Origin: Acidobacteriota bacterium
GTDB taxonomy: Bacteria; Acidobacteriota; UBA890; WLXD01
Assembly (NCBI GenBank): GCA_965205505.1
Contig: CBDBHB010000006.1
Location: 1-64,000 of the forward strand
Direction of reading: 5' to 3'
DNA length: 64,000 bases
How positions within the stretch are numbered: the stretch's first letter is position 1; every line of letters begins with the position of its first letter. Both the position numbers and the translations under genes were made by a program. Positions 10,193-55,672 of this stretch are shown one piece after another. A model generated the notes under the pieces. The model made no database searches and had not been told where the DNA came from. It worked only from the letters and a program-made list of their open reading frames with translations.

Positions 10193-10354
10193 TCGTCACC
10201 CTGAGCCGGGATTCAATCCCATCGTGCCGACGCTGCACGCTACGATGCTACCAGCCCACGGGCAGATTTGTAGATGGACTGCAGCGAGCTGAACTTGAGT
10301 TTCCCCGGCACGGTGCCGGGCCTGCGAGCTCCAAGCGTAGTTCGAACGGATCCA

Positions 10355-28601: not shown

Positions 28602-28619
28602 TCGGAGCCGGCTGCCCGC

Positions 28620-28826
28620 TTAGTCGAGCGCATCCTCTAGCTCGCGCTGCTGCTCCTCGAACCAGTCCACGAGGCGTTCCTTCTTGAACCGCCACTGGCC
28701 GGCAACTTTGTTGCCCGGGAGCTTCCCCTCGCGCGCCATCCGGTAGACCGTCGACTTGTGCAGGCGGAGGTACCGGGCGACCTCATCCAGCGTCATGATC
28801 GTCGGACGCGTTTCGCGTTCGGCCAT
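28620..28826 (-). CDS. Excisionase-like (HTH_17/BldC-like) DNA-binding protein, paralogue 0
   Basis: MTLDEVARYLRLHKSTVYRMAREGKLPGNKVAGQWRF; GGAGG RBS. Confidence 0.92.
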   Translation of the reverse strand: MAERETRPTIMTLDEVARYLRLHKSTVYRMAREGKLPGNKVAGQWRFKKERLVDWFEEQQRELEDALD

Positions 28827-28949
28827 CGTGTCCCTCCTCGAATCCCGCAAGGTAGCTCCGGGTCATCGGTCCGGGGCGGCATCGCGGTCAGCGCCGACCA
28901 AGTCTCGCCAGAACTAGCGAATCCTAACTCAGCGTAGGCAACGTTCATC

Positions 28950-28978
28950 ACTCTACGCGCTGCGAGACAGACTGTCAA
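28950..28978 (-). promoter_or_regulatory. Sigma70 promoter for HTH paralogue 0
   Basis: Minus strand TTGACA-N17-TAGAGT. Confidence 0.7.
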
Positions 28979-29190
28979 GGCGGTACGCTGTGCAATTCTG
29001 TGCGTTACTATCTTGGCATCCCCGGGGCAGTTGTTGTCTTGACGTCTCGGGTGCAGCTGCTACCTTCCGACTCCGCTGCAGTCGCTATCGTGGCGTCGCC
29101 ATAGCGGCGTGCCTTCGCGCGAGCTGCTCAGCCATGGTGCGTTTCGCCACACCGCTTGCCAGTGTCCCAACGAACCTCTGTTACGGGACA

Positions 29191-30042
29191 CTAGAAGTAG
29201 ACGCGGTCCTCGCCGATGATCTCTGTGCCGCTGGTGGTACGAAACACGAGACGCACCACGCCTTCGTCGCCGATGGGCTCCTGATCGAAGATCGAATAGT
29301 GGATCGGGCCGAGCGTTACCGCCGGCGGCGTGTAGTCGGTGTTCTTGAACCCGATCTGGCGGTTCGAGTAATCGCGCCCGCCAACGTCGAAGCGCCGCGC
29401 ATAAAGAGTGTTGAGCGGGCGCTGCACGCTGCCCCCCGCGAAGGCGCGGGGCCGTTCGCGCTCGATAATGTAGAGGTCGACGATGCCGGAGGCAGTCACG
29501 GGACGACCTTCCCAATCCTCCAGAACGAAGAACACCTCGAGGCGCCGCAACCCGTCGACGAACGCGGCGACGGTGCGAAACTTGTAAGGCTCATCGGCCC
29601 ACCAGGCCGACGGCGCCCCGAGAGCTTCGGCGACCAGGTCGAGGTTGGCGTTGTCGATATAGCCAGTTTGTTGTAGCAACGCGTCCGAGCCCGGCCCGAT
29701 CTGACCGCTGACCCAGTCCTCGTGGACGGTCCGTCCTTGCGAGTCGACGAAGTCGAGCTTTACCTTCACGACGACGGCGCGCGAGTTCGGGTTCGATACT
29801 CGCGTGCTCCAGTCGTACGGAACGCTGCCATTCGAGGCATCTCCCCAGTTGATCGCCGGGGTCGTGACGCTCACCTGAGGACCAATCGCCCCGGAGGTCA
29901 CTTGCTGCACGGACCCGCTGGGGTGCGAGCCACGAAGGGCGCTCGGTAGCGGCTGAGACTGCGCCTCGGGCGCATTACCGACGATTCCGGCCATCAGCAT
30001 GGTGGAGCAACAAAAGGCCAAGGCGGCGTTTTTTCGCATCAT
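29191..30042 (-). CDS. Secreted hypothetical protein, beta-rich (possible Ig-like/FxLYD-like domain)
   Basis: Signal peptide; VSNPNSRAVVVKVKLDFVDSQGRTV...QIGPG pattern; divergent from histidine kinase. Confidence 0.65.
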   Translation of the reverse strand: MMRKNAALAFCCSTMLMAGIVGNAPEAQSQPLPSALRGSHPSGSVQQVTSGAIGPQVSVTTPAINWGDASNGSVPYDWSTRVSNPNSRAVVVKVKLDFVDSQGRTVHEDWVSGQIGPGSDALLQQTGYIDNANLDLVAEALGAPSAWWADEPYKFRTVAAFVDGLRRLEVFFVLEDWEGRPVTASGIVDLYIIERERPRAFAGGSVQRPLNTLYARRFDVGGRDYSNRQIGFKNTDYTPPAVTLGPIHYSIFDQEPIGDEGVVRLVFRTTSGTEIIGEDRVYF

Positions 30043-30278
30043 GGTCTCTCGAACGGGATCAGAGGAGTCTTGTATAACGCGATGGTAGTCAGTGTGAACA
30101 GGTCAAGTCAGCCCTAAAAGATCGTCTTGTATGTTTTAAATTGACAACATGGTCAAATCCGGCCTAAACAGTGCTATAGCGACGGATAAAAGCGTTTTCG
30201 CTTCGACAGTAACTCGCGCCTCGCTAGAATCGAGCTTGTCAATTCTGGGTTCCGCCTTCCCGTTGCTCTGGAGCAGGG

Positions 30279-31781
30279 ATGCTCGATCGTTGGCCTGGTG
30301 CGCTCAAGGGCGTCAGGCGCGGTATTAGCCGGAAGCTGCACATGCGGCTCGCGGTGGCGTTGCCATTCGTAACGGCGTTGCTGGCGCTCGGGGTCGGGCT
30401 CTATGCGTTCGAAGTCGGGCGCACCGATGCCACGCGCCTGATGTCGCCGCGCCATGCCGCTCTTGTCTGGGCGACGCTGCCGGCGTCATGGCTTTGGCTC
30501 CTGGGCCTGACTGCGTTCGGTGCCTGTATCGGCCTGTCGATCGCGCTGGCGTTTACTAGTCAGCTGCGCACGCTTACCAAACGGACCGAGTTCCTGGCGC
30601 GCCGGAACTTCAGCTTCCCGGTGGAGTTGGAGGCCGACGGCGAGGTCGCGCCCTTGGTGAGCGCCATCAACGATCTGCTGGAATCGGTACGCGGATACGC
30701 TCGTAGCTCGGTTGTCGAGGGCCTGATCTCGTTCGCGCGCGACGGACGCGTGCTGTCGATCAATTCACGCGCCGCCGTGGCGCTGGGTGTAGACGCCGAT
30801 CTGACGATCGGCTGCGAATTCTCCGAGCTGATCGCGGACGTGCCCGACAATGTCGAGCTGACCCGGGCGCTCGTGGGAGCTCTGGAGCGCAGCGAGCCGT
30901 TCGACTTGCGCGGCTTGGCCTGGGTCAACCGGCGCGGACAGCGGCTGATGGTCGATCTCCAGGGAACAGTGCTTGCTGGCGAGGAGTCGATCATCTCGGT
31001 ACTGATCGTGTTCGAGCGTGCGGCCGACACCGAGAAGGTACAGCGTCAGGTTAGCCGTGCGCATCGCCTGATGGTCATCGGCGGATTTGCCGCCGAGTTG
31101 GCGCACGAGATCCGCAACCCGTTGAGCTCGGTTCTCGGCCTCGTCCAGTTGCTGCACGAGCGCCTACCTCCAGGCGATGAGGGGCATCGTCACCTGGATG
31201 TTCTGTCGCGAGCGTCTCAGCGCATCGAGCGACTAGTGGGGCAGCTCCTCGATCTGGTGCCCACCGAGATCCACGATCTCCAGCAACGCGATATCAGCTT
31301 GTTGGTCCACGACACCGTCGAGTTCGTGAAAATGAGCCGGACCGAAGACGATGACGTTGTTCTCTCCGAGAGCTTCGCGCCCGAGCTCCCCCCTTGCATG
31401 GTTGATCCGGAGCGACTCGGCCGCGCCATCGAGAACCTGGTACGCAACGCCTACGCTCACACTCCGGCCGGCGGGCGCATCGAGGTGGCCACCCGAGTTC
31501 GCGATACGCAGCTGGAGGTGAGGGTTGCGAACACGGGGTCGTTTGTCGCGCCTGAAGACCGCGAGCGCATCTTCCAACCGTTTGTTTCGGGACGCGGCGG
31601 TACTGGCCTGGGTTTGGCCATCGCGCAGCAGATCGTCTACGCCCATGGTGGATCGATCGATGTCGATAGCACGCCTGGGAGCGGCACCGAATTCATCCTG
31701 CGACTGCCTCTTGGCGCGGCCAGCTTTGTGGACCCGACCCAGGTCCCTGCCGACGAGCAGCTAGCGGCGGGAGCGGCGTAG
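30279..31781 (+). CDS. Membrane sensor histidine kinase (2 TM, HAMP, PAS, HisKA, HATPase), PilS/AtoS-like
   Basis: LAHEIRNPL, NLVRNA, IFQPFVS, GTGLGLAI. Confidence 0.93.
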   Translation: MLDRWPGALKGVRRGISRKLHMRLAVALPFVTALLALGVGLYAFEVGRTDATRLMSPRHAALVWATLPASWLWLLGLTAFGACIGLSIALAFTSQLRTLTKRTEFLARRNFSFPVELEADGEVAPLVSAINDLLESVRGYARSSVVEGLISFARDGRVLSINSRAAVALGVDADLTIGCEFSELIADVPDNVELTRALVGALERSEPFDLRGLAWVNRRGQRLMVDLQGTVLAGEESIISVLIVFERAADTEKVQRQVSRAHRLMVIGGFAAELAHEIRNPLSSVLGLVQLLHERLPPGDEGHRHLDVLSRASQRIERLVGQLLDLVPTEIHDLQQRDISLLVHDTVEFVKMSRTEDDDVVLSESFAPELPPCMVDPERLGRAIENLVRNAYAHTPAGGRIEVATRVRDTQLEVRVANTGSFVAPEDRERIFQPFVSGRGGTGLGLAIAQQIVYAHGGSIDVDSTPGSGTEFILRLPLGAASFVDPTQVPADEQLAAGAA

Positions 31782-33176
31782 ATGGTGGAAACGAAGCGAC
31801 TGCTGATCATCGATGATGATCCCGAGGTGCGGTACACGCTCCGTGCAGCGTTGGCTGGCGAAGGCCTCACGATCGATGAGGCCGAGACCGCGGCCGAGGG
31901 GCTCGAGCTGCTGGCTGAGCCCGACTCCGGATACGAGTTCGTACTGCTCGATCAGCGGCTCCCTGACGCCAGCGGGCTGGACATACTCGAGGAGGTGCGG
32001 CGACTTCAGCCAGCCGTTCTGGTAGTGATGATGACCGCCTATGGCAGCCGGCGTACCGCTGCGCTTGCGATTGATCGCGGAGCCTACGACTTCTTCACCA
32101 AGCCGATCCAGATCGACGAGCTGCGCGTCGTCATGGGGCGCGCTCTGGAGCGACGTCGCTTGGCGCGTGAGGGCACCAAACTGCGCGCCCGGGCGGGAGG
32201 TGCCAGCAGTTTCGGCAACATGATCGGCAAGTCGCGGGCTATGCGACAAGTCTTCGAGACCCTAGGAAAAGTCGTGCGGTCGGACACCACCGTCCTCGTG
32301 CTCGGCGAGAGTGGAACTGGCAAGGAACTCGTGGCGGAGGCCATTCACTTCAAGAGCAAGCGGGCCGACGGCCCGTTCGTGAAGCTGAACTGCGTGGCGA
32401 TCCCCCAGACGCTTCTGGAAAGTGAGCTGTTCGGTCACGAACGAGGCTCGTTCACCGGCGCACACCAGCGCAAGATCGGAAAATTCGAGCTCGCAGACCG
32501 CGGCACGATCCTGCTCGACGAGATCGGCGACATGACCCTCGAGACGCAGGCCAAGATCTTGCGCGTGTTGCAGGAGCGTGAGTTCGAGCGAGTTGGTGGA
32601 GTGGCGACCGTGCGGGTTGATGTCCGGGTGGTGGCAGCCACTAACCGCAATCTCGCGCTCGAAGTACGAGAGGGGCGCTTCCGGGAAGACCTCTACTTCC
32701 GTCTCAACGTCGTCACCGTGAATTTGCCGCCTCTGCGCGAGCGCATACAAGACATTCCGCTGCTGACCGAACACTTCATCAACGAGTCCAACGAGGCGCA
32801 CGGCAAGCACCTGGAGCGCATCTCACCGGCGGCGCTCGATGCCGTGGTCGGCTACGCCTGGCCGGGGAACGTGCGACAGCTTCGCCACGCGGTCGAGCGT
32901 GCCGTGATCTGGAGCGAAGGCGACGAGTTGCGGCGACAAGACCTACCGGCAGAGGTCGTGCGTGGATCGCTTGTTGCTGAGCGTGCCGCCCGCACCGGAA
33001 CCGACGATAGTCTGCCGATCACCATGTACCGCATCGAGCGTCAGATTCTGATCGACGCACTACGAAGCTCAAGCGGCGTCCAGGCGACGGCGGCTCGACG
33101 GCTGGGCATCTCCGAGCGCTCGATGTGGCACAAGGTCAAGAAGCACGGCATCGACGTCGAGCGGCTGAAAGGCTGA
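31782..33176 (+). CDS. Sigma54-dependent response regulator (REC-AAA+-Fis HTH), PilR/AtoC-like
   Basis: LLDQRLP, GESGTGKE, ESELFGHERGSFTGA, LLDEIGDM, WPGNVRQL, AARRLGIS. Confidence 0.96.
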   Translation: MVETKRLLIIDDDPEVRYTLRAALAGEGLTIDEAETAAEGLELLAEPDSGYEFVLLDQRLPDASGLDILEEVRRLQPAVLVVMMTAYGSRRTAALAIDRGAYDFFTKPIQIDELRVVMGRALERRRLAREGTKLRARAGGASSFGNMIGKSRAMRQVFETLGKVVRSDTTVLVLGESGTGKELVAEAIHFKSKRADGPFVKLNCVAIPQTLLESELFGHERGSFTGAHQRKIGKFELADRGTILLDEIGDMTLETQAKILRVLQEREFERVGGVATVRVDVRVVAATNRNLALEVREGRFREDLYFRLNVVTVNLPPLRERIQDIPLLTEHFINESNEAHGKHLERISPAALDAVVGYAWPGNVRQLRHAVERAVIWSEGDELRRQDLPAEVVRGSLVAERAARTGTDDSLPITMYRIERQILIDALRSSSGVQATAARRLGISERSMWHKVKKHGIDVERLKG

Positions 33177-33332
33177 GTCGGCGGCCCTGCCGCGCGCCCG
33201 CTTTCGGGGCGACTCTCACCCACTTACACAAGCGGTCGAAGCGCCCCCTGGCCGTTGTGGGCCATGCTTGTCCGCGAGAGTACCCGCCTGTCTGGTGGCG
33301 TCCCCACCTGGCATCGACGATCCCCCCGTAGC

Positions 33333-33370
33333 GTGTAGGAGTTTCTACACGTTTTGTAGGTAAGACGATA
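33333..33370. promoter_or_regulatory. Candidate enhancer (UAS) for the sigma54 activator
   Basis: Palindrome GTGTAG-N6-CTACAC (33333-33350); second TGTAGG half-site 21 bp later. Confidence 0.55.
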
Positions 33371-33380
33371 ACGCTTGTGA

Positions 33381-33393
33381 TATCAGTGAGTTA
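33381..33393 (+). promoter_or_regulatory. Candidate IHF site
   Basis: TATCAG-TGAG-TTA fits WATCAR-N4-TTR, between UAS and -24/-12. Confidence 0.5.
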
Positions 33394-33588
33394 CGGTGCA
33401 AAGATCAGTTTCGATCGGCGTAATGCACGGGCGGACGGGGGAGACGCTACCAGCACCTGGGTGGCCCAAGCTGGCCGGACAGAGGCTTGTAGTCGGTCGG
33501 GAAGTATTCGATAACCCCTTTTGTTGTAGTGACTTATGGTGGCGAAGCGTACTGCGTCCAGTCGCCTCGCGGGGCACGCGCCCGAGTT

Positions 33589-33604
33589 TGGCACGGCGGT
33601 TGCT
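33589..33604 (+). promoter_or_regulatory. Sigma54 (-24/-12) promoter
   Basis: TGGCAC-GGCGG-TTGCT, consensus TGGCAC-N5-TTGC, ~65 bp upstream of HTH paralogue 1. Confidence 0.88.
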
Positions 33605-33670
33605 TACTCCTCGGGTGTCGAGCTCGGCTCGGCGCCTACCCGAACCCCGCCAACATGGGAGTACGCAATC

Positions 33671-33889
33671 GTGCAGAAGCTGTACACCACCGAGACGCTC
33701 GCAGAGCTGCTCCAGGTCTCGCCGCGGACGATCCGTCGCGAGCGCAAGGAGGGCCGACTGCCGTTTGTCCGCGTTCGCGGCCAGATCCGCTATCGCGAAA
33801 GCGATGTGCGCTCATATCTCGAGCGCAACGCCAGTATGTCGCTGGACACGGATACGTTTGCTTCGCAGGCCAACTGGGGCGAGCGCTAG
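33671..33889 (+). CDS. Excisionase-like HTH protein, paralogue 1
   Basis: GTG after GGGAG; YTTETLAELLQVSPRTIRRERKEGRLPFVRVRGQIRYRESDV. Confidence 0.88.
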   Translation: MQKLYTTETLAELLQVSPRTIRRERKEGRLPFVRVRGQIRYRESDVRSYLERNASMSLDTDTFASQANWGER

Positions 33890-33963
33890 GTCCTAACAGG
33901 ATCTGTACTCGCACCGCAGTTGACCGAAACCCCGCAAGGGCGGGGAAAACACGGAGGCAATTA

Positions 33964-34182
33964 ATGCTGGGTCTTCACACGACAGAGTCTCTGGCCGAGT
34001 ACTTGCAGGTTTCGCCCCATACCGTGCGACGAGAGCGTGAGGCCGGCCGGCTACCGTACATTCGCATCCGCGATCTCGTCCGGTACCGCCCGGAGGACGT
34101 GGAGTCGTACTTGCAGAGTCAGTCGCAGGATCGCTACGACGCGACGCCGCCGTTCGGAGAGCGTGTCGCGGCGATTCGCTGA
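33964..34182 (+). CDS. Excisionase-like HTH protein, paralogue 2
   Basis: ATG after GGAGG; HTTESLAEYLQVSPHTVRREREAGRLPYIRIRDLVRYRPEDV. Confidence 0.88.
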   Translation: MLGLHTTESLAEYLQVSPHTVRREREAGRLPYIRIRDLVRYRPEDVESYLQSQSQDRYDATPPFGERVAAIR

Positions 34183-34250
34183 AGATGGCCTGCGTTCTGA
34201 GTCGAGGTGTGGGCGCCGGAAAGCCCCTGCCCTCGCCAAGGGAGAATTCC

Positions 34251-34865
34251 TTGAGCCGTAACGATGGCATGACAATGATCGAGATCACGGTGATTCTCGC
34301 CGTGCTCGGCCTACTGGTGGGGCTGGTTGCTACCGCAGCCGGAGACCTGCTGGAACAATCGCATGCCGTTCGAACCGGAGAGGAAGTTGACCGTATCGGG
34401 CGCGCGATCGTGGAGTTCTATGCCGACACCGGCTACTTCCCGCGCACCAACGATACGTTTGACGGACGGCCCGGCGATCAAGAGATCGGCGCGCTCATCA
34501 GCGCCGCTCAGCTGCCGCGAAGCACCGCCTCGACAGGACTCTGGGTCGAGTCAGACCTTGGACTTCTGGCGGAGCATCTTACCTACAACGGCAAGGGCTA
34601 CCGCGTTCGCAACCCGATTGACAACCGCGGCTGGGCCGGACCCTACCTGCCTCAGGCAGTGGGCGAGGACGGCTGGGCGCACGCCTACATCGTCAACGTT
34701 TTCTGGCTGGATGTCAGAAACGTCGTCGAGGAGGCCGATGGCACACGCCTCGGCGCCGTATGGGTGTTGTCGGCTGGGCCGAACGGGATCATCGAAACCC
34801 CCTATTACCAGCCGCGTGACAATGCTCGGCTCTACGGGGACGACATCGGTTTCCGACTGCAATGA
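34251..34865 (+). CDS. GspG-like prepilin 1
   Basis: TTG after AGGGAG; G|MTMIE class III signal; WAGPYL, DGWAHAY, LSAGPNG, GDD. Confidence 0.88.
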   Translation: MSRNDGMTMIEITVILAVLGLLVGLVATAAGDLLEQSHAVRTGEEVDRIGRAIVEFYADTGYFPRTNDTFDGRPGDQEIGALISAAQLPRSTASTGLWVESDLGLLAEHLTYNGKGYRVRNPIDNRGWAGPYLPQAVGEDGWAHAYIVNVFWLDVRNVVEEADGTRLGAVWVLSAGPNGIIETPYYQPRDNARLYGDDIGFRLQ

Positions 34866-35719
34866 GAAGCATGGACAAGATCCGAAATAGCCGCGGCTTC
34901 ACGCTTGTGGAGGTATCGATCATCCTCATGGTCGTCGTTGTTCTGTCGGCCGCCATCGCACCGGTGCTCAGCAGCGTCGTCGCCAACGCGAGGCTGACCA
35001 CGGCGCGAGCCGAGATGATCGTCATCGGCCGGGCGCTGCAGCAGTTCATCGAAGATATTGGCTGCGTCTTTGTGCCGCAGAACGAAGCCTATCAGTCCAC
35101 CTCGAGTTCGGTGGGCGCGAAGCGCACCAGCGGGCGTAGCCGAAGCGCGGCCAGCAATGTCGTCATTGCGCCGGCTTCGACGACGCCGGCTCTACCGCCC
35201 GGCGGCGGCAGGTTGGAGGGCGGTTTCGTCGACACGAAAGCGCTGGGCACAGGATGCGGCAACCCTGACCTGTGCTACGGCGACGCCGTCGAGATTCTAG
35301 TTACCGCCGGCGACATCCCGGCCTTGGGCCCCGAAGGCGGAGAGCGCTGGGCAGAGCCGGTCGACGGTACGTGGGTGGACTTCTTCGAGTACTACCTGAT
35401 CTCCAACACACCCGGAAACGATCCCGGCCGCGCATTCGCGAGCCTGGCCGAGTGTGGCGATCCGGTAGCCAACACGCTCTCGCAGTTGCATGCCTGGGGC
35501 GGCGCCTACCTGAACATCGGTCACGGCGACCCGTGGGGCAACCGCTACGCCGCCAACGTTTATTTCCTGAGCCAGACGGACGGCATTGATGTGGTGGTGT
35601 TGTCGGCGGGACCGGATCAGGAAATCGATTCGAGATTCGAAATGGACGGGTTCGTACCCGGGGACGACGACATCGCGGTGTTGTTCTCGACTGGGCCCGA
35701 CAGCGTGCCGGGACGATGA
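34862..35719 (+). CDS. GspG-like prepilin 2
   Basis: RG|FTLVE; WGGAYL, DPWGNRY, LSAGPD, GDDD. Confidence 0.9.
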   Translation: MRSMDKIRNSRGFTLVEVSIILMVVVVLSAAIAPVLSSVVANARLTTARAEMIVIGRALQQFIEDIGCVFVPQNEAYQSTSSSVGAKRTSGRSRSAASNVVIAPASTTPALPPGGGRLEGGFVDTKALGTGCGNPDLCYGDAVEILVTAGDIPALGPEGGERWAEPVDGTWVDFFEYYLISNTPGNDPGRAFASLAECGDPVANTLSQLHAWGGAYLNIGHGDPWGNRYAANVYFLSQTDGIDVVVLSAGPDQEIDSRFEMDGFVPGDDDIAVLFSTGPDSVPGR

Positions 35720-35763
35720 CGATGCGTCGAGCCGGCCACGCCCGCAACCGCAGGGAGAAAGCG

Positions 35764-36618
35764 ATGACGAAACTGGGCCAGGGACGGCACCAGAATCACG
35801 TCGGTGAGCGCGGATTCACTCTGGTCGAGGTGTCGATCATCGTGATGGCCCTCGCGATCTTGTCGGCCATTCTGCTGCCGCAGGTTGGTGTTTTCTTGCG
35901 CGACGCGCGCTTCGCCCGCGTCCGCGAGGACGTTGCCGTGATCGGCGCTGCCATGATGCACATGCTGAAAGACACCGGCGAGAGCTCGTTCCACTCCAAA
36001 CCCATGGGTGGCTCCAGCTGGCGCTCGCCCGAGCGCTACTCCGAGGGCGGTGACGCTCCGCCGATTGGCCTGCTCATCGGCGATGGCGACACGCCGGATG
36101 GTCGTAGCGAGTTCTACGAGTGGCGGGAGCCGCTGGGCTCGACGGTGGGCGACGCCGGCACCGACCTTCCCAACGTGTGGTTGAGCGGCGGAATTGTCGA
36201 CACCTTTGCCAATCACCTGATCCAGAACTACCCGGGCGACCTTGCCGACGGCGGTACTGGCCCCGACTGGAAGCGGTATCGGACCCCCGCCGACATGGTC
36301 TCGGGCGATCACAGCTCGGGTGTACCTGGCGGATTGCACTTTGACGGCAGCAGTGGCCAGGGCTTCAACTCGGAGTTCGCCTGGCGCGGCCCCTATCTCG
36401 ACGCCGCGCGTCCGGATCCGTGGGGCAATCGCTACATGGCCAACGTCGCTTGGCTGACGGTGCCTCAGGGTGGCGACTCGGTCGGCTTTATCCGGCCAGT
36501 GTTCGTGATCTCGGCGGGTCCAGACGAAGAGCTCGATACGCCGTTCGGTTCCGTCGGCGGCTTCGTGCTCGGCGACGACGACATCGCCTTCCCGGTTTCC
36601 TACGGTTCCTTGCGCTGA
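35764..36618 (+). CDS. GspG-like prepilin 3
   Basis: RG|FTLVE; FAWRGPYL, DPWGNRY, ISAGPD, GDDD. Confidence 0.9.
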   Translation: MTKLGQGRHQNHVGERGFTLVEVSIIVMALAILSAILLPQVGVFLRDARFARVREDVAVIGAAMMHMLKDTGESSFHSKPMGGSSWRSPERYSEGGDAPPIGLLIGDGDTPDGRSEFYEWREPLGSTVGDAGTDLPNVWLSGGIVDTFANHLIQNYPGDLADGGTGPDWKRYRTPADMVSGDHSSGVPGGLHFDGSSGQGFNSEFAWRGPYLDAARPDPWGNRYMANVAWLTVPQGGDSVGFIRPVFVISAGPDEELDTPFGSVGGFVLGDDDIAFPVSYGSLR

Positions 36619-36628
36619 AGAGACTTCG

Positions 36629-37432
36629 ATGACCCGCACTCACCTCACGACGACGCGCACCGCACGGATGGGATTACTCCCGGCGAGCGCCAGCGGCTTC
36701 ACCTTGGTGGAGGTCACGATCATCCTCATAGTGCTGACCGTGCTGAGCCTCATCCTCCTTCCTGGGATCGGGAACTACCTGCGGGACGCGCGCCTGGCGC
36801 GTGCTCGGCAAGATATCGGCACGATCCAGGAGGCTATTCTGGTGTTCATGCGTGATACCGGAGAGGGTGTCTTCCGCCGTCTCGGCAAGGCCAACAGGGA
36901 TACGTCCTCCGGAGAGGACTACGAGCCCTCGAACCCCGACCCGTTCTTCACGGTGGGAATGCTGGTCAACGACGGTGACACTCCTGACGAGGGCAACGGC
37001 GACGACCTCTGGCTCTGGCGACGCCCGTACGATGGGCACGTGGTCGACACTCTTGCCAACCATCTCGTGCAGAACACGCCGGGCAACGAGCCGTCGGCGA
37101 GCTACCGGACTCCCGAGCACATGATCGCCGATGTGCCCTCCCGGAACGCTCCGTTTGCCAACCAGCAAGGGTTTGGCGCGCACTTTGCTTGGCGCGGCCC
37201 CTACGTGTCGGCGCCGGTGCGATCCGATCCCTGGGGAAATCGTTATGCGGTGAACGTTCTGTACCTGGATCCAATCGCCGACAGCGCCACCGAGGACAAC
37301 GCCGGCTACCGCTTCGATATCTTCGTGATGTCTGCGGGCCCGGACGAGCAGGTCGATACGCCGTTCGAGATCGACGGCGTGGTAGCTGGCGACGACGACT
37401 TAATCCGCGTGGTGTCCGGGGGCAGCCGATGA
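36629..37432 (+). CDS. GspG-like prepilin 4
   Basis: SG|FTLVE; FAWRGPYV, DPWGNRY, MSAGPD, GDDD. Confidence 0.9.
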   Translation: MTRTHLTTTRTARMGLLPASASGFTLVEVTIILIVLTVLSLILLPGIGNYLRDARLARARQDIGTIQEAILVFMRDTGEGVFRRLGKANRDTSSGEDYEPSNPDPFFTVGMLVNDGDTPDEGNGDDLWLWRRPYDGHVVDTLANHLVQNTPGNEPSASYRTPEHMIADVPSRNAPFANQQGFGAHFAWRGPYVSAPVRSDPWGNRYAVNVLYLDPIADSATEDNAGYRFDIFVMSAGPDEQVDTPFEIDGVVAGDDDLIRVVSGGSR

Positions 37433-38109
37433 ACCCAGTGCTGGAAGCCGATGGCGGCCACGCGCGGGCTCGCGGTGCGCGCGGTTTCACGCTGCTGGAG
37501 ATCACCATCATCCTGGCGGTGATCGCCATTCTCGGTCTGATCCTTGCTCCGTCGGTCTTCAATTTCTTGAACCAATCGCGGCTCGCACGAGCGCAAAATG
37601 ACGTGCGAATCCTGGCCGACTCGGTCTTCGAGTTCTTTCGGGACAGCGGATTTCACGCCCAGTTCGGCGACGGCCAGCGGCAGAGCCACATCGCCCTGCT
37701 GGTCTCGCCCGGCGCCGTTGGCGAGGCGCGTCCCGGTGCAGAACCGTGGCTGAATACAGACCCCACCATGGTCGATTTCATCTCCAACCAGTTGGTCAAT
37801 AATCGGCCCTCGTCAGGGGACATCGGCTATCCGTTGAAGACGGCACTCAGCGGCTCGGGTTGGAACGGCCCCTACCTCAACGCGCACATGCAGAGCGATC
37901 CATGGGGCAACCGCTACGCCATCAACGTGGAGTACCTGTCGGTGAACCCCGGTGCCTTCGAGGCCGGCGGCGTGCAGCAGAAGCGGGCCGTATGGGCTCT
38001 GTCGGCAGGCCCTGATGGTGTCTTCGACACCCTGTACCCGTCGGCCGACGCGCAGCTGCTCGGCAACGCCGCTGCCAGCCCCCTCGACATCAGCGCCCGG
38101 ATCCAATGA
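37429..38109 (+). CDS. GspG-like prepilin 5
   Basis: ATG overlapping previous stop; RG|FTLLE; WNGPYL, DPWGNRY, LSAGPD. Confidence 0.9.
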   Translation: MNPVLEADGGHARARGARGFTLLEITIILAVIAILGLILAPSVFNFLNQSRLARAQNDVRILADSVFEFFRDSGFHAQFGDGQRQSHIALLVSPGAVGEARPGAEPWLNTDPTMVDFISNQLVNNRPSSGDIGYPLKTALSGSGWNGPYLNAHMQSDPWGNRYAINVEYLSVNPGAFEAGGVQQKRAVWALSAGPDGVFDTLYPSADAQLLGNAAASPLDISARIQ

Positions 38110-38320
38110 GGCGAGCTTCGCTCACCATACTGCAACCTAGCCAGCGCGATCGACGCCTCCAGGACCACCGCTATCGATCTTCTGATCGGAACGCGCGTTT
38201 TCGCCGGACATGGCGGGCCACCGCGCAGCGGCGCCGTTTGCGTACATTGTTAACGAACGGTAGGGTCGAGTCCAACGTACAGAGATCGAGCGAATGAGCC
38301 CAACAATAGGGTCGACGCAG

Positions 38321-38551
38321 ATGGCGGATACAACCCTCTTCACCACCTTCTCACTGGCCGAGTACTTGCAGGTCAGCGCGAGGACGGTGCAGCGCGAGGT
38401 GGCTCGCGGCCGTCTCCCGTTCGTCATGGTCGGAGGACGCCGGCGCTATCGAAAGGCCGACGTCGAGTCCTACTTGCGCTCCCGCCTGCAGCGCTCGCGC
38501 TTCCGTGTGATTCAAGGCGGCCGAAGCCGGCACGCCTCCTCCTCGCTCTGA
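38321..38551 (+). CDS. Excisionase-like HTH protein, paralogue 3
   Basis: FTTFSLAEYLQVSARTVQREVARGRLPFVMVGGRRRYRKADV; start could be 38294. Confidence 0.86.
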   Translation: MADTTLFTTFSLAEYLQVSARTVQREVARGRLPFVMVGGRRRYRKADVESYLRSRLQRSRFRVIQGGRSRHASSSL

Positions 38552-38770
38552 GGCGCGCGGCGGTCGGCGGCTCGCAGCCGGCCACCGCTACGAACGTTCG
38601 GCGGTGTCTGATGCTTTCCCGCGCGTCCCTTTGCTACCCGTCTTTGCGGTTCCGTCAGAGGTCGGTGGACCTCTGTGGCCAAGGCCGGACTCTATCTGTT
38701 GCGCGTACGCAGCGCTCGCTTCATGCTCTCCACCAAACAAGGCAAGTCCCTGAACCCCCGGTTGTGAGCA

Positions 38771-39031
38771 ATGAAGCGGCAGCGCCTCGAGACCGTCGAA
38801 ACTTTGGCAGAACGCTTCGGCCTGCCCCGCCGAACCATCGAGCGTGAGGTCAAACGTTGTCGGCTTCCCTACGTCAGCGTTGCGGGCAACTGGCGCTTTC
38901 GCGAACGCGACATCGAGCTCTGGCTGCAACGTGCGGGCGGATTGCCTAGGCTGCAGCTGATGCGGGGAGGGCTTCCGGACCGTCTTCCCGTCGTACCGTG
39001 GACAACGGAAGCCGAGAGCGGCAGTAGCTGA
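38771..39031 (+). CDS. Excisionase-like HTH protein, paralogue 4
   Basis: ETVETLAERFGLPRRTIEREVKRCRLPYVSVAGNWRFRERDI. Confidence 0.85.
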   Translation: MKRQRLETVETLAERFGLPRRTIEREVKRCRLPYVSVAGNWRFRERDIELWLQRAGGLPRLQLMRGGLPDRLPVVPWTTEAESGSS

Positions 39032-39142
39032 ATCGACCGGACAGGAGCGGCCAACACCGGCCACGCGTCGTTGAGCTCCTGCGGTGGCCCGCATACGCTC
39101 CACCCAATTGTTAACCAAGCCTGGACCAGTTGGGGATCTCAC

Positions 39143-39358
39143 GTGGAAAGCAGCATTCGCGTCGAGACGGTTGCGACCCTGGCCTTGCGCCTCGAGATGA
39201 CTCGCGACGCCGTGGTGCGCGAGGTCGTCGAGGGCCGACTGCCGTACGTTAGCGTTGGTGGCCACTGGCGGTTCCGCGAAATGGACATCGCGCACTGGCA
39301 GAAGAACTATGGTGGCGACGCCGGTCTCAAGCTCGTAGGCGAACGCGATTCCGGTTGA
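39143..39358 (+). CDS. Excisionase-like HTH protein, paralogue 5
   Basis: GTG after GGGGA; ETVATLALRLEMTRDAVVREVVEGRLPYVSVGGHWRFREMDI. Confidence 0.82.
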   Translation: MESSIRVETVATLALRLEMTRDAVVREVVEGRLPYVSVGGHWRFREMDIAHWQKNYGGDAGLKLVGERDSG

Positions 39359-39759
39359 CGTTCGTCAAAAGTGTCGGCAACCATGCGCGCCCGCCGACGC
39401 ACCGGGGCCCGATTATGGCCGCCGATGTCCTGATTTGCGAATGGTGGGCGGCGCTGGCGATCTACCGCCAGGCTGTGGCTCGCAGGCGCGCGTTGAGCCG
39501 CCGGCCGGCAAGCTCTGGCATAGGCTGGCTGCTGCTGCCAGGGTCGACGCCGCCAGGGCACGACCGGCGGGCCAAACGCGGCCGCTGGGCGCGAATGGGT
39601 TTGGCCAAGCGCTCCTGTTGACTCTACACTGGGACCACGTAAACGACGTGGCTCATGTCGCCAGCTCTCGGCATACCGGCGCACAACGCGTTCGCCCGGT
39701 AGGTGGCGCCCGGCGCTTGCAAGAGACAGACGACGTGGCCCTTAACGAGGCCCAAGCCG

Positions 39760-40527
39760 ATGGTTTCACCCAAGGTCGCGCGCCGACGATTCTCACCAGA
39801 GAACCCATCCGAGCGGGGGTTTACCCTCGTCGAGGTCACCATCATTCTGCTTGTCCTGGTGATCTTGAGCACGATCATGCTGCCGCAGATCGGCGGCTTT
39901 AACCGGCGCGCCCGATTCGTCCGCGTCAAGGAGGATCTCGGCGCCATATGCTCACTGATCAAGGCGATGCTCGACGACGTCGGAGAAGGCGCCGTCTCCG
40001 AGGAGGCTGGCTACGATCACCCCCCGATCCGAACCTGGGCCACCGGCCTGTTGATCGGCGAGGGGGACAAGCCGAGCGGCCCGGACGGCGACTCGGACGG
40101 TCGATCCAAATGGCGGCTCGACTTCTTTGACATGTTCGACGTCGAGACCGCCACCGGCAAGGAGATCTCGTTTCAGGTCGATAGGCTCGGCAACCACCTG
40201 ATCTCCAACACACCGATGGATGATGCGGGCAACCGCTAGCGTACCCCCAACGACATGGAGCAGGGGTTCAGCAGCCTGTTCGCCTGGCGCGGCCCCTACA
40301 TGAACGACCAAATCTCCCCCGACCCGTGGGGCAACCGCTACGCAGTGAACGTGTTTGCCCTCTACAGCCCACCCCGGGTGGGGCCGCTCGATCGGTTCAG
40401 CTCCGCCGTGGTGTGCTTCAGTGCCGGGCCCGATGGCAACGTGGATACGGACTTCAACCAACCTTTTGGCTGGACCACCGGCGACGACGATCTCACCGCG
40501 CTGCTACAGGCCGGCGGACCGATGTAG
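39760..40527 (+). pseudogene. GspG-like prepilin 6 interrupted by an in-frame TAG (40237-40239)
   Basis: RG|FTLVE N-terminus and FAWRGPYM...DPWGNRY...FSAGPD C-terminus are in one frame, separated by a single TAG; may be a sequencing error. Confidence 0.8.
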
Positions 40528-41136
40528 CTTCGTGGCTTCAGGACCGGGCCATCGGAGGATCGATCGCCAGACCGCGCGACCATCAGCGTCGATCTTCCTG
40601 AATGAGGGCGAGGTGCTCAGGCGCCTCGCCCTTCGCTCGTCCGAGGTCGGAAACTCGACCCCTCGACAGCAGAGCAGGCTCCACCCGTTGGGTTGGCAAC
40701 GCTGGTAACGACGACTGGACGCGCCTGACCTCTACAGCTAGGTCGGGAGCCCGGTCGCATAGCTCCGGCTGCCACTGGCTGCGGCTGCCACGGGTGTACA
40801 CGAAAACGCAGTTCGCAGGCGACAACAGCGGCCAGTAGTGAGACGGGCAGGTTGGGGGTGACTCCGTCGATTCCCTACGATTCCCTTACGACACGTGCTC
40901 GGGCGCCGTCTCCCCCGACGCACCGCATTACAGGGAGGCCCAAAACAATGCGACTTCGCGAGGACCATCGCGGAGTTACCCTTATCGAGGTCTGGCCCAG
41001 GGATGATTGGTCGATGGCGCTGGCGGTGCCGGGAGACGCCGCCGGCTCCGCTCCTTTCGTCGCTGCAAGGTCTCGGTCCGGATGCGACACCAACCAAGCG
41101 GGCGTGACGCGAGCCCGCCGGCACGCGGAGGCCGAG

Positions 41137-42075
41137 ATGCAACTCTTCAAGCAGATGTGCAAGAGACGACAAGGCGCCCAGGGTCCCGAGGGGAGACGCG
41201 GTGCCCAGGATGGCTTCACGCTGGTCGAGGTGGCGACGATTCTGCTGGCGCTCGGCGTGATGGCCGGCATGCTGGTGCCAAGCATCGGCCAGTTCAACTC
41301 TCTGGCGCGCCGGGTTCGTCTGAGCGAGGACCTCGGTGTGCTATGCACGGCCCTCAAGATGATGCTCGACGATGTCGGCGAGAGCACTTTCTGGGGAAGC
41401 TACGGTCGCAGCTATCAGACCGGCTACGCGGTCTCCGGTTACGGCGCTACGAGCGGCGGGCAGTCGAGCCCAGGTATGGCGAACGCTTATTCGACCGGCG
41501 TGAGCTACAACAGCGGCGGCTCCTACCAGGCGGCCGGGTTGCTGGTCGGCAACGGAGATATTCCAGCCTCGGCGATCGGCGCCACCCAGTGGCAGCTGCA
41601 GCGCGGCGCCACGTTCATCGCCGACACCGACGCGTACTATCAGGTCGGCCTGAGCTTCGTGGTCGACGGATTCGCGGACCAGCTCATCCACCATGGCGTG
41701 GTGACCACGTCCGACGCTATCGATGCTGGCGGCTATGGCTACAGTGGCCCACACAACCTGGGTCGCTACCCTGGGACGGTGGACTCCATGGACATGTTCC
41801 ACTGGCGCGGTCCGTACATCGCCGATCGCATCAATGCCGATCCGTGGGGCAACCGCTACATGGCAAATGTCTTCGCCCTGCACCTGCCGCCGGCTACGCT
41901 GTACAACACCCATGCGTACTGGCGCCGCCATCAGCCGTTCTTCAGCTCGGCCGTGGTCTGTTACTCGGCGGGGCCGAACGAGCAGATCGAGACCGCCTTC
42001 GACCAGCCCTGGGGCTGGTACACGGGTGGCGACGATCAAACCGCCGTGCTGGCAGGGGTAGGCGGGATCCGGTAA
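41137..42075 (+). CDS. GspG-like prepilin 7 with Gly/Ser/Tyr-rich insert
   Basis: ATG after GGAGG; DG|FTLVE; FHWRGPYI, DPWGNRY, YSAGPN, GDD. Confidence 0.9.
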   Translation: MQLFKQMCKRRQGAQGPEGRRGAQDGFTLVEVATILLALGVMAGMLVPSIGQFNSLARRVRLSEDLGVLCTALKMMLDDVGESTFWGSYGRSYQTGYAVSGYGATSGGQSSPGMANAYSTGVSYNSGGSYQAAGLLVGNGDIPASAIGATQWQLQRGATFIADTDAYYQVGLSFVVDGFADQLIHHGVVTTSDAIDAGGYGYSGPHNLGRYPGTVDSMDMFHWRGPYIADRINADPWGNRYMANVFALHLPPATLYNTHAYWRRHQPFFSSAVVCYSAGPNEQIETAFDQPWGWYTGGDDQTAVLAGVGGIR

Positions 42076-42298
42076 TCCGGTAATTAGTCACCTCAAGCTA
42101 TTTTTGGCCATTCTTGACCGCTCAGGATATGACAAGGACGGCCATGGACGGACAAGTGCTGTCATGGGAATGAAAAAATTGCTTATGTCATTATGAGCTA
42201 GCATCGATCTGTCCGGATTAGCGAAGATTTGGCCGTCGGGAGGCTGCGAATAACCTCCCGGCGGCTTTTCTCGTCTGTCCTTCCACCCCGGACGTTCG

Positions 42299-43270
42299 AT
42301 GATCCACATCGAGAATCTGACCAAGTGCTTCGGTTCGGTCGCCGCCCTGGACCGCGTCTCGTTCGACGTCGCTGCCGGCGAGGTTGTCGGGCTGCTGGGT
42401 CCGAACGGCGCTGGCAAGACCACCACCATGCGTATCCTGACGGGTGCGATGCCCCCCACCTCGGGCTTAGTCCAGGTTGCCGGGCGTGACGTCGCGCGCC
42501 AGCCCTTGGCGGTGAAGCGGCACGTCGGCTATCTGCCCGAGGTTCCGCCGCTCTATCCGGAGATGCGCGTCCGCGCGTACCTGATGTTCGTGGCCGAGCT
42601 CAAGGGTTTGCGCAAGTCGGAGCGCGCCGCCGCGGTCGAGCGCGCCCTCACCCTGTGCTGGCTCGAGGATCGAGCCGGGCAGCCAATCGAGCAGCTTTCC
42701 AAAGGCTACAGGCAACGCGTCGGGCTGGCGCAGGCGATCCTGCACTCACCTGACCTGCTGGTTCTCGACGAGCCGACCTCTGGGCTCGACCCGCGTCAGA
42801 TCATCGAGGTACGCCAGCTCATTCGCGAGCTCGCCGGCGAGCACACGGTGATTCTGTCGAGCCACATCCTCAACGAGATCGCCGCGTCCTGCGAGCGGCT
42901 CGTCGTGCTGCACCGGGGAGCGGTCGTTGCCACCGATACGGTGGCGGCGCTGACCAAGCGATTCAGCGGTGGCCAGAAGATCGTATTGCAGGCTCGCGGC
43001 GACGTCGACGCGATGCGTCGCGCGCTTCGGACCGTCGCCGGCGCCGACAACGTCGCCCTGGTCGACGACACCGAGCCCGGTTGCTGGCGCTGCGAGGTTG
43101 CGACGCCGGCCGACAGAGACCTCCGCCCGCAACTCGCGGCGGCGATTGTTAACGGCGGCTGGGAGCTTGTCGGCATAAGCCGTATCGAGCTCAGCCTCGA
43201 GCAAATTTTCCTACGACTTACCGAGGAGCCCGATTCTGATGACGTCGACGAAGAGCCGCGTGTAGCCTGA
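42299..43270 (+). CDS. ABC transporter ATP-binding protein (GldA-like)
   Basis: GPNGAGKTT, LSKGYRQR, LDEPT, SSH. Confidence 0.93.
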   Translation: MIHIENLTKCFGSVAALDRVSFDVAAGEVVGLLGPNGAGKTTTMRILTGAMPPTSGLVQVAGRDVARQPLAVKRHVGYLPEVPPLYPEMRVRAYLMFVAELKGLRKSERAAAVERALTLCWLEDRAGQPIEQLSKGYRQRVGLAQAILHSPDLLVLDEPTSGLDPRQIIEVRQLIRELAGEHTVILSSHILNEIAASCERLVVLHRGAVVATDTVAALTKRFSGGQKIVLQARGDVDAMRRALRTVAGADNVALVDDTEPGCWRCEVATPADRDLRPQLAAAIVNGGWELVGISRIELSLEQIFLRLTEEPDSDDVDEEPRVA

Positions 43271-43285
43271 CGGAAAAGGAGAAGG

Positions 43286-44083
43286 TTGATGCGCGGAGCC
43301 TGGGCAATCTGCAAGCGTGAGCTACACAGCTATTTCGTGTCGCCGGTAGCGTACGCACTCATGGCGGTGTTCTGGCTCGCCGAGTCAGTGTTCTTCATTT
43401 CCATTCTGAACTATTGGGCGGTGCAAGGACGCAGCGCCGACGTTCGGGCCGAGCAACTCGGGCCGCAAGGCAACTTGCTCAACGTGCCGGCAATGATCGG
43501 CACCAGCTTCCTCGATATCACGGCGTGGCTGCTGGTGTTCATACTGCCGATCGTGGCGATGGCGCTGCTGGCGGAAGAGAAGCGACGCCGCACCATGGAG
43601 CTACTGCTCACCTCACCGGTCACCAATGCCGGCATCATGTGGGGCAAGTTCTTCGGCGCCTATCTGTTCTTGGTGGCGTTGCTGGCACCGACCTTCTGTT
43701 TCCAATACGTGCTCGCGTACTTCGGCGCCAACGAGCCGGCGGTCTGGATTACCGGTTACCTCGGGCTGCTGCTGCTGGCCGCGGCCATGCTGGCCGCGAC
43801 GCTGTGGGTATCGGCGCTAACCGAGAGCCAGGTTGTGGCGGCGTTCGGCGGCTATGGCCTGCTGCTGATCTTCTGGTTCGTCGACGCGCCCGCGAACCTG
43901 CTGCCCAGCATCTGGCAGGACGGCGTTCGCTGGCTGTCATTGCATCACCACTTCGGCGACTTCCGCGTCGGTGTGATCAGCCTGCCAGACGCCAACTACT
44001 TGCTCTGGTTCACCGCCTTCTTCTTGTTCATGACCCACCTGGCTCTCGAGAGCTTGCGGTGGCGAGGAGTGCGCAGCTCATGA
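43286..44083 (+). CDS. ABC-2 permease (GldF-like)
   Basis: KRELHSYFVSPVAY, AEEKRRRTMELLLTSPV, GKF; multiple TMs. Confidence 0.88.
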   Translation: MMRGAWAICKRELHSYFVSPVAYALMAVFWLAESVFFISILNYWAVQGRSADVRAEQLGPQGNLLNVPAMIGTSFLDITAWLLVFILPIVAMALLAEEKRRRTMELLLTSPVTNAGIMWGKFFGAYLFLVALLAPTFCFQYVLAYFGANEPAVWITGYLGLLLLAAAMLAATLWVSALTESQVVAAFGGYGLLLIFWFVDAPANLLPSIWQDGVRWLSLHHHFGDFRVGVISLPDANYLLWFTAFFLFMTHLALESLRWRGVRSS

Positions 44084-47361: not shown

Positions 47362-47365
47362 GCAC

Positions 47366-54283: not shown

Positions 54284-54302
54284 TGGATTTCGGAGGCCAG
54301 CA

Positions 54303-55664: not shown

Positions 55665-55672
55665 GAAAGCCA

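Follow-up and report, generated by a model that had tools for sequence, protein, structure and literature searches.

Why would a single pilus gene cluster encode five diverged copies of a small DNA-binding domain? The question is raised by a 64,000-nt stretch of DNA from an Acidobacteriota bacterium (GenBank assembly GCA_965205505.1, contig CBDBHB010000006.1, positions 1 to 64,000; the whole stretch is called the window below). Five small open reading frames (ORFs) of 71-86 aa, each with an HTH_17 domain, were found on its plus strand within 33671-39358, where an earlier note on this DNA had placed them: HTH1 (33671-33889, 72 aa, GTG start), HTH2 (33964-34182, 72 aa), HTH3 (85 aa if read from 38294-38551, 76 aa from 38321-38551), HTH4 (38771-39031, 86 aa) and HTH5 (39143-39358, 71 aa, GTG start). 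HTH5 was started at 39143 because of its orthologue P0044 and a conserved GGGGA-N7-GTG. The note had called them five tandem paralogues; five diverged paralogues they are, but not one tandem array, with a pair (HTH1-2) and a trio (HTH3-5) lying 4.1 kb apart and five pseudopilin genes between them.

The ATPase, platform protein, secretin and prepilin-type subunits of a type II secretion system (T2SS)/MSHA-like filament cluster were all encoded in the locus, which contained seven GspG-like prepilin genes (pil1 to pil7). What is new here is that triple direct repeats abut sigma-70-type promoters ahead of HTH3, HTH4 and HTH5.

Direct repeats and promoters of the locus

To collect related loci, genomes were scanned with aligned HTH1 orthologues, and seven of 35 pattern matches were confirmed (L001 to L007). 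All were in Acidobacteriota metagenome-assembled genomes, seven species-level genomes in total, and L004 and L005 were short contigs. The order kinase, sigma-54 activator, HTH1, HTH2, pil1-5, HTH3, HTH4, HTH5, pil6 and further pilins was kept in the four loci that were long enough (L001, L003, L006 and L007), with pil2-3 absent in L003; its first part was visible in L004 and L005.

Recurring blocks were first visible in alignments of the orthologous intergenic regions. From 15 upstream regions (HTH3-5 in five loci), one shared 44-nt element was recovered by Gibbs sampling, with an information content of 25.9 bits against 14.1-14.5 in four shuffled sets, a value inflated because the 15 training sites come from about two clades and share descent. 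The layout of the element is R1 CGGACA, 4 nt, R2 CGGCCA, 4 nt, a weaker R3 CGGnCn, 7 nt, TTGCGn, 17-18 nt and nAnnnT. The triple repeat, CGGACA-N4-CGGCCA-N4-CGGnCn with a 10-bp period, precedes HTH3, HTH4 and HTH5 in five of five full loci, and the distance between element and start codon is nearly constant, at 67-85 nt, in 14 regions and 112 nt in the remaining one. Read by eye, a TTGnnn-like hexamer was followed after 17-18 nt by nAnnnT in 15 of 15 regions, the -35 of the L007 HTH5 region being degenerate (TGG), and the repeat centers would fall near -45, -55 and -65 of this sigma-70-type promoter. Most information was located at the CA end of each repeat (TG on the opposite strand). The fourth base was mostly A in R1 (12/15, never C), mostly C in R2 (10/15) and loose in R3.

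In the window, the HTH3 control region (38204-38266, plus strand, matrix score 21.9) contains R1 at 38205-38210, R2 at 38215-38220 and a degenerate R3, with the -35 at 38238-38243 and the -10 at 38261-38266. For HTH4 (38665-38727, plus strand, score 31.3), the repeats are located at 38666-38671, 38676-38681 and 38686-38691, the -35 at 38699-38704 and the -10 at 38722-38727. The HTH5 control region (39037-39099, plus strand) has R1 at 39038-39043, R2 at 39048-39053, R3 at 39058-39063, the -35 at 39071-39076 and the -10 at 39094-39099, and was the top-scoring matrix site in the window (40.5). The three -10 hexamers are TAGGGT, CATGCT and TACGCT. The intergenic targets proposed earlier for binding assays had left out 38552-38770 and 39032-39142, where strong arrays sit. 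These second-tier sites were also considered as sigma-54 promoters, a reading that was rejected by hand count, the GG-to-GC spacing being 2 nt too long.

Phased direct repeats, the kind bound by Xis/BldC-type proteins, were present in almost all remaining intergenic regions of the locus, and the rest of the window had next to none. With a matrix of the repeats only, nine window matches scored at least 12, eight of them in locus intergenic DNA (0-6 in shuffles). The loose phased pair [CT]GG[ACT]C-N5-[CT]GG[ACT]C had 16 instances in the window, close to the mean of 15.5 in shuffles, so that only the placement was unusual: 12 of the 16 fell within 2907 nt of locus intergenic DNA, and 7 of these 12 were outside the training sites. 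All four instances of a stricter, CA-ended pair were in locus intergenic DNA as well. In the related loci, repeats-only matches were intergenic in 10 of 11 cases for L001, 8 of 8 for L006, 5 of 5 for L007 and 4 of 5 for L003, where the fifth lay in unannotated DNA.

Upstream of pil6 an inverted triple phased repeat was observed (39406-39432, minus strand, repeats-only score 16.9), with a further phased pair at 39570 on the same strand. A weak repeat/promoter-like site preceded pil7 (40818-40856, plus strand); its matrix score of 11.0 is within the shuffle range, and its L001 equivalent scored 12.7. Two facing phased-repeat arrays (42095-42154, repeats-only scores 12.0 on the minus and 12.3 on the plus strand, strict pairs at 42105 and 42139) lay ahead of the ABC transporter operon, which may belong to the HTH regulon because these arrays precede it. 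Held-out sites upstream of further pilin genes scored 32.2 (L006 13854), 21.7 (L007 15617), 16.1 (L006 10485) and 15.2 (L001 19986); the maximum in 20 shuffled windows was 16.4, therefore only the first two were clearly above chance.

HTH1 and HTH2 stand behind a promoter of another type. A -24/-12 sigma-54 promoter, TGGCAC-N5-TTGC, was identified at 33589-33603 on the plus strand, 68 nt before the HTH1 start. It was the sole match without mismatch in the window (81 matches with up to two mismatches, 64 expected), and exactly one such element was found in each of the eight sources, at the same place upstream of HTH1. The involvement of a sigma-54 system, suggested before, is borne out by this promoter; its role as the focus of the repeats is not, the strongest arrays instead abutting the sigma-70-type promoters of HTH3-5. 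HTH1, the most conserved paralogue, would head an operon with HTH2 and pil1-5, as judged from short gaps and overlapping stop/start codons.

Directly upstream, a sensor histidine kinase (30279-31781, plus strand; HisKA, HATPase_c and a weak PAS_4) and a sigma-54 enhancer-binding response regulator (31782-33176, plus strand) are encoded. The latter has Response_reg, Sigma54_activat (239.6 bits) and HTH_8 domains, that is, REC, AAA+ and a Fis-type helix-turn-helix. With a kinase, an activator of the REC-AAA-HTH_8 type and, in front of the pilin genes, a -24/-12 promoter, the locus has the elements of a PilSR-like system. The response regulator missed every NCBIfam equivalog cut-off, and orthology to PilR was not established. 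About 240 nt upstream of the promoter, a palindrome TGTAG-N6-CTACA with a third TGTAG (33334-33359) formed a conserved block in the seven-locus alignment and may be the site of the enhancer-binding protein. Between this putative activator site and the promoter, a TGGCC-N5-TGGCC phased pair (33462-33476, plus strand) occupied conserved columns in the seven loci. An inverted triple phased repeat was also present (33249-33275, minus strand, repeats-only score 15.7, phased pairs at 33250 and 33260).

The five HTH_17 proteins

Both hidden Markov model searches proposed in the earlier note were passed by all five proteins. With Pfam HTH_17 (PF12728, gathering cut-off 27 bits), HTH1 to HTH5 scored 56.5, 44.3, 51.0, 35.6 and 31.5 bits, and with TIGR01764 (excisionase-family DNA-binding domain, curated cut-off 28.8 bits) 43, 30.9, 48, 28.8 and 29.2 bits, HTH4 being precisely on the cut-off. 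HTH1 had a weak MerR_1 match, and no Pfam domain besides those of winged-helix type was found in the five by the Pfam scan. The shared residue pattern, the recognition-helix strings and the two wing types (RY in HTH1-3, WRF in HTH4 and HTH5) that had been read from the translations all reappeared in a five-way alignment, in which T6, L10, A11, R23, E24, R29, L30, P31, R40, R42 and D45 were invariant.

When the whole window was searched in six frames with the profile, six of 1034 stop-to-stop frames matched, HTH1-5 and paralogue 0. The last, whose WRF wing had also been pointed out earlier, is a distant HTH_17 protein (28623-28862, minus strand, 62.1 bits) at the edge of the conserved locus, and was kept in L001 and L007.

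An AlphaFold2 model of HTH1, built on an alignment of 74 rows (pLDDT 77, pTM 0.55), gave the order helix-helix-strand-strand-helix followed by a disordered tail. From this model and the lengths of 71-86 aa, the proteins are predicted to be stand-alone winged helices without coiled coil or effector domain. HTH3-5 share a short C-terminal tail motif (RFRVIQGG, RLQLMRGG and GLKLVGE, encoded at 38530-38551, 38940-38960 and 39325-39345 on the plus strand), which is absent in HTH1 and HTH2; it may be a contact surface for a partner or RNA polymerase.

The likeness to Xis/BldC-type proteins proposed earlier was recovered by both sequence and fold, with BldC on DNA as the top Protein Data Bank (PDB) match. 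The best matches of the five-way profile were 6AMA (E 2.7e-5) and 6AMK (4.5e-5), followed by RacA and MerR-family chains at E > 0.1. With the HTH1 model, the top seven Foldseek matches were all BldC-DNA chains (36-37% identity, target-normalized TM 0.69-0.78), at E values no better than 1.8e-3 to 2.4e-2, a level to be expected of a domain this small; Xis-type structures were lower in the list.

In a set of 5.8 billion proteins, the five-way profile gave 333 matches with E <= 0.001 among 821 candidates, the named ones being 'helix-turn-helix domain-containing protein [Acidobacteriota bacterium]' or 'excisionase family DNA binding protein'. A search of the Atlas returned generic HTH_17 clusters only. 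HTH1 orthologues were 82-96% identical, and orthologues of HTH2 could be aligned as well.

Absence of purifying selection had been named as grounds for giving up the proposal, but all five genes were found to be under such selection. The ratio of nonsynonymous to synonymous substitution (dN/dS), computed pairwise by the Nei-Gojobori method with L003 HTH1 excluded, was 0.02-0.13 for HTH1, 0.06-0.18 for HTH2, 0.05-0.19 for HTH3, 0.10-0.24 for HTH4 and 0.10-0.21 for HTH5, thus 0.02-0.24 overall, where dS values above 1 are saturated. The HTH1 domain was almost frozen (dN 0-0.03 against dS 0.57-1.6).

In a maximum-likelihood tree of 31 rows, from which the truncated L003 HTH1 and the L002 copy were left out, every paralogue formed one group (one change each, shuffled mean 4.8-6.5), therefore the duplications predate the split of these genomes. 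HTH1 and HTH2 grouped together and with HTH3, HTH4 grouped with HTH5, and paralogue 0 stood distant on a separate long branch. On these grounds the best explanation of the five ORFs is that they are genuine and expressed, and encode DNA-binding proteins with a single winged-helix domain, of a BldC-like HTH_17 branch, which would serve as dedicated regulators of the pilus cluster.

Possible control of the pilin genes

The best account of the locus, with a probability of roughly 0.55, is a BldC-like two-tier cascade for the pilin genes that would be triggered by the sigma-54 sensor system. The kinase and the enhancer-binding response regulator would activate the promoter at 33589-33603, from which HTH1, HTH2 and pseudopilins 1-5 would be transcribed as a single operon. 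The BldC-like proteins would then bind the arrays of three CGGNCA repeats head to tail at their 10-bp period, with the arginine equivalent to Arg30 of BldC reading the TpG step, that is, the conserved CA of each repeat. The bound arrays would control the promoters of HTH3-5, of later pilin genes and probably of neighboring operons. The outcome would be a two-tier feed-forward or autoregulatory cascade, timing or selecting seven alternative GspG-like pilins. Activation is plausible because the arrays are positioned upstream of the -35, yet BldC is described as activating as well as repressing.

BldC was found on DNA (PDB 6AMA and 6AMK) to bind 9-bp direct repeats head to tail, with a bend of about 50 degrees in the DNA (Schumacher et al. 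2018, PMC5859096). In that structural account the optimal site is given as AATTCGGAC repeats; Arg30 reads a TpG step at the repeat end, Lys26 contacts GG, His46 of the wing reads the AT-rich minor groove, and Trp31 kinks the DNA and is part of the interface (PMC5859096). Both BldC and the proteins described here are stand-alone MerR-like winged helices of about 70 aa, without coiled coil or effector domain. The candidate targets here are direct repeats about one helical turn apart, and the CGGAC(A) hexamer is found in both; CGGACA had been derived before the BldC site was consulted, and equals its major-groove part. Arg30 aligns with R23, which was invariant in 74 of 74 aligned relatives, and the Lys26 position is occupied by R, H, R, R and D in HTH1 to HTH5.

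Several observations weigh against this account. The position of Trp31 is taken by Glu, and that of His46 varies (Q/L/R/N/H). BldC requires an AT-rich minor groove and a repeat of 9 bp; the arrays here have GC-rich spacers and a 10-bp period. The NCBIfam BldC model NF033787 (curated cut-off 77 bits) was not reached, HTH1-3 scoring 30.9, 21.7 and 29.1 bits and HTH4-5 giving no match. The recognition helices differ among the five paralogues, yet a single repeat class was seen. The promoter hexamers were identified by eye, and a generic sigma-70 scan of the locus missed all of them (3 promoter-like sites, 2.2 expected, none at HTH genes). With the full matrix, the sites of pil6 (below 7) and pil7 (11.0) in the window are degenerate and within the shuffle range. 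The inflated information content and the ordinary window total of loose pairs point the same way. In L002 only the sigma-54 promoter and HTH1 were present, in a different context, and the direction of the cascade is pure inference.

Taking the BldC-type match together with the NF033787 scores and the differences in Trp31, His46, period and spacer, HTH1-5 probably work like BldC without belonging to the curated BldC family. Their setting also differs from that of BldC: one pleiotropic gene in Streptomyces, against five diverged paralogues here in one locus of an Acidobacteriota genome, inside a pilus/secretion cluster under predicted sigma-54 control.

Two better-known systems can be set beside the locus. 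In Pseudomonas, Myxococcus and Geobacter, pilin genes are under sigma-54 control by PilS-PilR. The likeness is a kinase and a sigma-54 response regulator directly upstream of a sigma-54 promoter into pilin genes; here, however, the response regulator is below all NCBIfam equivalog cut-offs, and the first products would be two small regulators, followed by a second tier of three regulators with sigma-70-type promoters. Canonical MerR proteins share the winged-helix fold, and bind palindromes inside over-long spacers of 19-20 nt. In contrast, HTH1-5 have no dimerization helix or effector domain, a coiled coil being excluded by length and model, and the candidate sites are direct repeats upstream of the -35 of promoters with 17-18 nt spacers.

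A possible but clearly less probable explanation is that the CGGNCA arrays are bound by another factor, such as an OmpR/PhoB-type regulator encoded elsewhere, or act as promoter-upstream elements, the HTH_17 proteins having other targets or a nucleoid-type role. Phased direct repeats next to the -35 are the classic layout of OmpR/PhoB-type regulators, and this is the layout seen here; it is also named in the discussion of the BldC paper (PMC5859096). The five differing recognition helices facing one repeat class, and the scores below the BldC subfamily cut-off, would likewise suit a foreign binder. On the other side, an OmpR/PhoB-type regulator was not encoded in the locus according to the Pfam scans, the repeats keep to the very locus in which the HTH_17 set is encoded, and the hexamer fits the major-groove part of the BldC site with the reading arginine invariant.

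The paralogues may also act jointly. A close relative encodes a natural 149-aa fusion of HTH4 and HTH5 (P0001); set against the window, it lacks about 49 codons, the HTH5 repeat array and -35 among them. When 1.84 billion representatives were searched exhaustively with a profile, 11611 matches had E <= 0.001, 77 had E <= 1e-10 and one had E <= 1e-30. By hand count, about 65 of the best 150 library representatives had 2-7 such domains per chain, where whole-protein scoring favors multi-domain chains. P0121, P0122, P0130 and P0133 are single polypeptides of 221-486 aa with 3-7 tandem HTH_17 domains of the HTH1-5 type.

Co-folding of HTH1 and HTH2 with orthologue alignments scored 0.34, against 0.00 for the best of three controls; the runs agreed in at least 89% of contacts and the partner pLDDT was at least 78. 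Of 157 solved complexes 116 reached the mark applied, as did 2 of 215 mismatched pairs; among scores of 0.60 or less, only 18 of the 157 solved complexes and both passing mismatches did so. The pass may reflect memory or likeness only, because BldC oligomers are already solved, and it lends weak support to a pairing of HTH1 and HTH2. A more speculative reading, unlikely as a whole, is that the paralogues form ordered hetero-oligomers on non-identical repeats, different paralogues reading different positions of one operator, and so turn the sigma-54 signal into a combinatorial, stepwise choice among seven major pseudopilins, as a split-gene version of the polypeptides with 3-7 domains.

An architectural role, which would be compatible with the cascade, appears rather improbable. 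HTH1/HTH2 on the TGGCC pair (33462-33476) and the inverted array (33249-33275) would bend the DNA where IHF usually sits, leading to autoregulation. The pair is kept in the seven-locus alignment between palindrome and promoter, phased pairs are present in the region upstream of the sigma-54 promoter, and BldC bends DNA (PMC5859096). Against this, the strongest and best-conserved arrays are at the sigma-70-type promoters, and with the full matrix the array at 33249-33275 scored 11.6-11.8, within the shuffle range, and nothing of 7 or more was found at 33462-33476. The earlier proposal of an architectural role in sigma-54 looping is not supported as stated, the two-repeat TGGCC-N5-TGGCC element being its sole basis.

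Antitermination of the AlpA/Q-like type is very improbable. The HTH proteins would load on RNA polymerase at promoter-proximal sites and allow read-through of the gaps of 110-600 nt; AlpA-type proteins are of the same fold class as HTH_17 proteins, the AlpA family was assigned to 11% of the members of an Atlas neighbor cluster, and long untranslated gaps do exist between the genes. However, the repeats are upstream of the -35 and not downstream of the start, and a scan of 28000-43000 gave 7 intrinsic terminators against 8.0 expected, none in the intergenic gaps.

Least likely, and hardly to be credited, is that the five proteins are excisionase (recombination directionality factor) remnants of a mobile element, as the name of the relatives, the TIGR01764 scores and the Xis-type structures at lower fold-list ranks might suggest, for no integrase was found in the scanned ORFs, the neighbors are core chromosomal (mreB, rodA, nuo), gene order in the locus is fixed in several species-level genomes, purifying selection is strong and G+C is flat along the window at 0.61-0.68. 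The earlier claim that recombinases are absent holds for the scanned ORFs, Pfam scans of 56 (16 + 21 + 19), mostly of at least 200 aa, giving no recombinase of the tyrosine or serine type. Winged-helix recombination directionality factors such as lambda Xis and RdfS share the fold class with HTH1-5 and oligomerize on DNA; RdfS is reported also to regulate promoters (PMC11963761). Unlike the Xis/RdfS setting, in which a cognate integrase and att sites accompany a mobile element, the locus shows neither att site nor, in the scanned ORFs, recombinase; its genes are chromosomal and have been retained vertically in conserved synteny, and the repeats are at promoters.

With these alternatives weighed, the earlier observation is confirmed and its interpretation partly supported. 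The BldC-type binding mode is already known; its arrangement in a pilus locus is undescribed in the literature found, where no work on such proteins in a pilus/secretion locus or in Acidobacteria was met. The locus is a compact test case, with five paralogues and a candidate operator in three sharply conserved instances inside 900 bp, and with both the upstream signal (sigma-54) and the output (seven pilin genes) clear. If binding were confirmed, the head-to-tail mode of BldC would extend to GC-rich 10-bp repeats, a first handle on surface-filament control in an uncultured Acidobacteriota lineage would be obtained, and a natural system would be at hand for asking whether winged helices of a single domain assemble on DNA into filaments of mixed, ordered composition.

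Gene neighborhood and minor observations

Genes for nuo, selA, RNase G, rodA, PBP2, mreC and mreB mark the window as core chromosome. One IS110-type DEDD transposase (12011-13057) was observed 20 kb from the HTH set; selA (selenocysteine synthase, 10274-11767) adjoins it, and neither is related to the HTH finding. Between paralogue 0 and the kinase, a 283-aa protein of no known family is encoded (29191-30042, minus strand), with a signal-peptide-like N-terminus and no Pfam or NCBIfam match. Its orthologues were present at the equivalent position in L001, L003, L006 and L007, and a part as substrate or accessory in the pilus/secretion system is conceivable.

The five overlapping or abutting GspG-like pseudopilin genes pil1-pil5 occupy 34185-38109 on the plus strand. 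N_methyl and/or T2SSG were detected in four of the five, the TIGR01710 matches were weak and under the cut-off, and synteny was kept. The sixth, pil6 (39703-40527, plus strand), has N_methyl and T2SSG in its two halves and is broken by an in-frame TAG at 40237-40239, where the orthologues of L001, L006 and L007 have W (...AGNRWRTP...); either decay of the pilin gene or a fault in the assembly would account for the break. The L003 copy is likewise broken, further upstream. pil7 (41137-42075, plus strand) has weak N_methyl and T2SSG matches, and its start was inferred.

Between the pilin genes and the assembly ATPase, an ABC transporter set (42299-45516) consists of an ABC ATPase, an ABC-2 permease and a GldG-like auxiliary protein. 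The assembly machinery follows at 45607-57578 on the plus strand, where an MshEN ATPase, the platform protein, a PilM/GspL-like protein, T2SSM, a T2SSB-like protein, the secretin, an AAA_22+SPOR protein, which we take to resemble ExeA, and an SLT transglycosylase were identified by Pfam. The domains supporting the filament assignment were T2SSE with MshEN, T2SSF, Secretin and T2SSM, with N_methyl/T2SSG in the pilin genes; the MshE-related cyclic di-GMP motif NF053729 scored 46.1 bits (cut-off 38). No prepilin peptidase was seen in the window, and Rfam gave no match in it at gathering thresholds. A 461-aa minus-strand ORF without Pfam match (55661-57046) lies within the assembly span.

At L002 9590-10280, in a closely related genome, the HTH1 upstream region (palindrome, TGGCC pair and sigma-54 promoter) was found with a 94%-identical HTH1 of altered C-terminus; the surroundings are unrelated, other genes of the locus being absent within 10 kb, and this HTH1 may stem from a rearrangement or be a second copy, or the contig may be chimeric.

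Two hairpins, both small, lie in the HTH1-HTH2 spacer (33886-33966). About 15 nt ahead of the ribosome-binding site of HTH2, the second one forms a CCCCGC/GCGGGG stem; this second hairpin was kept in seven loci with differing loop and stem letters (folding z-score just -1.9), and it may set the HTH1:HTH2 ratio or stabilize the mRNA.

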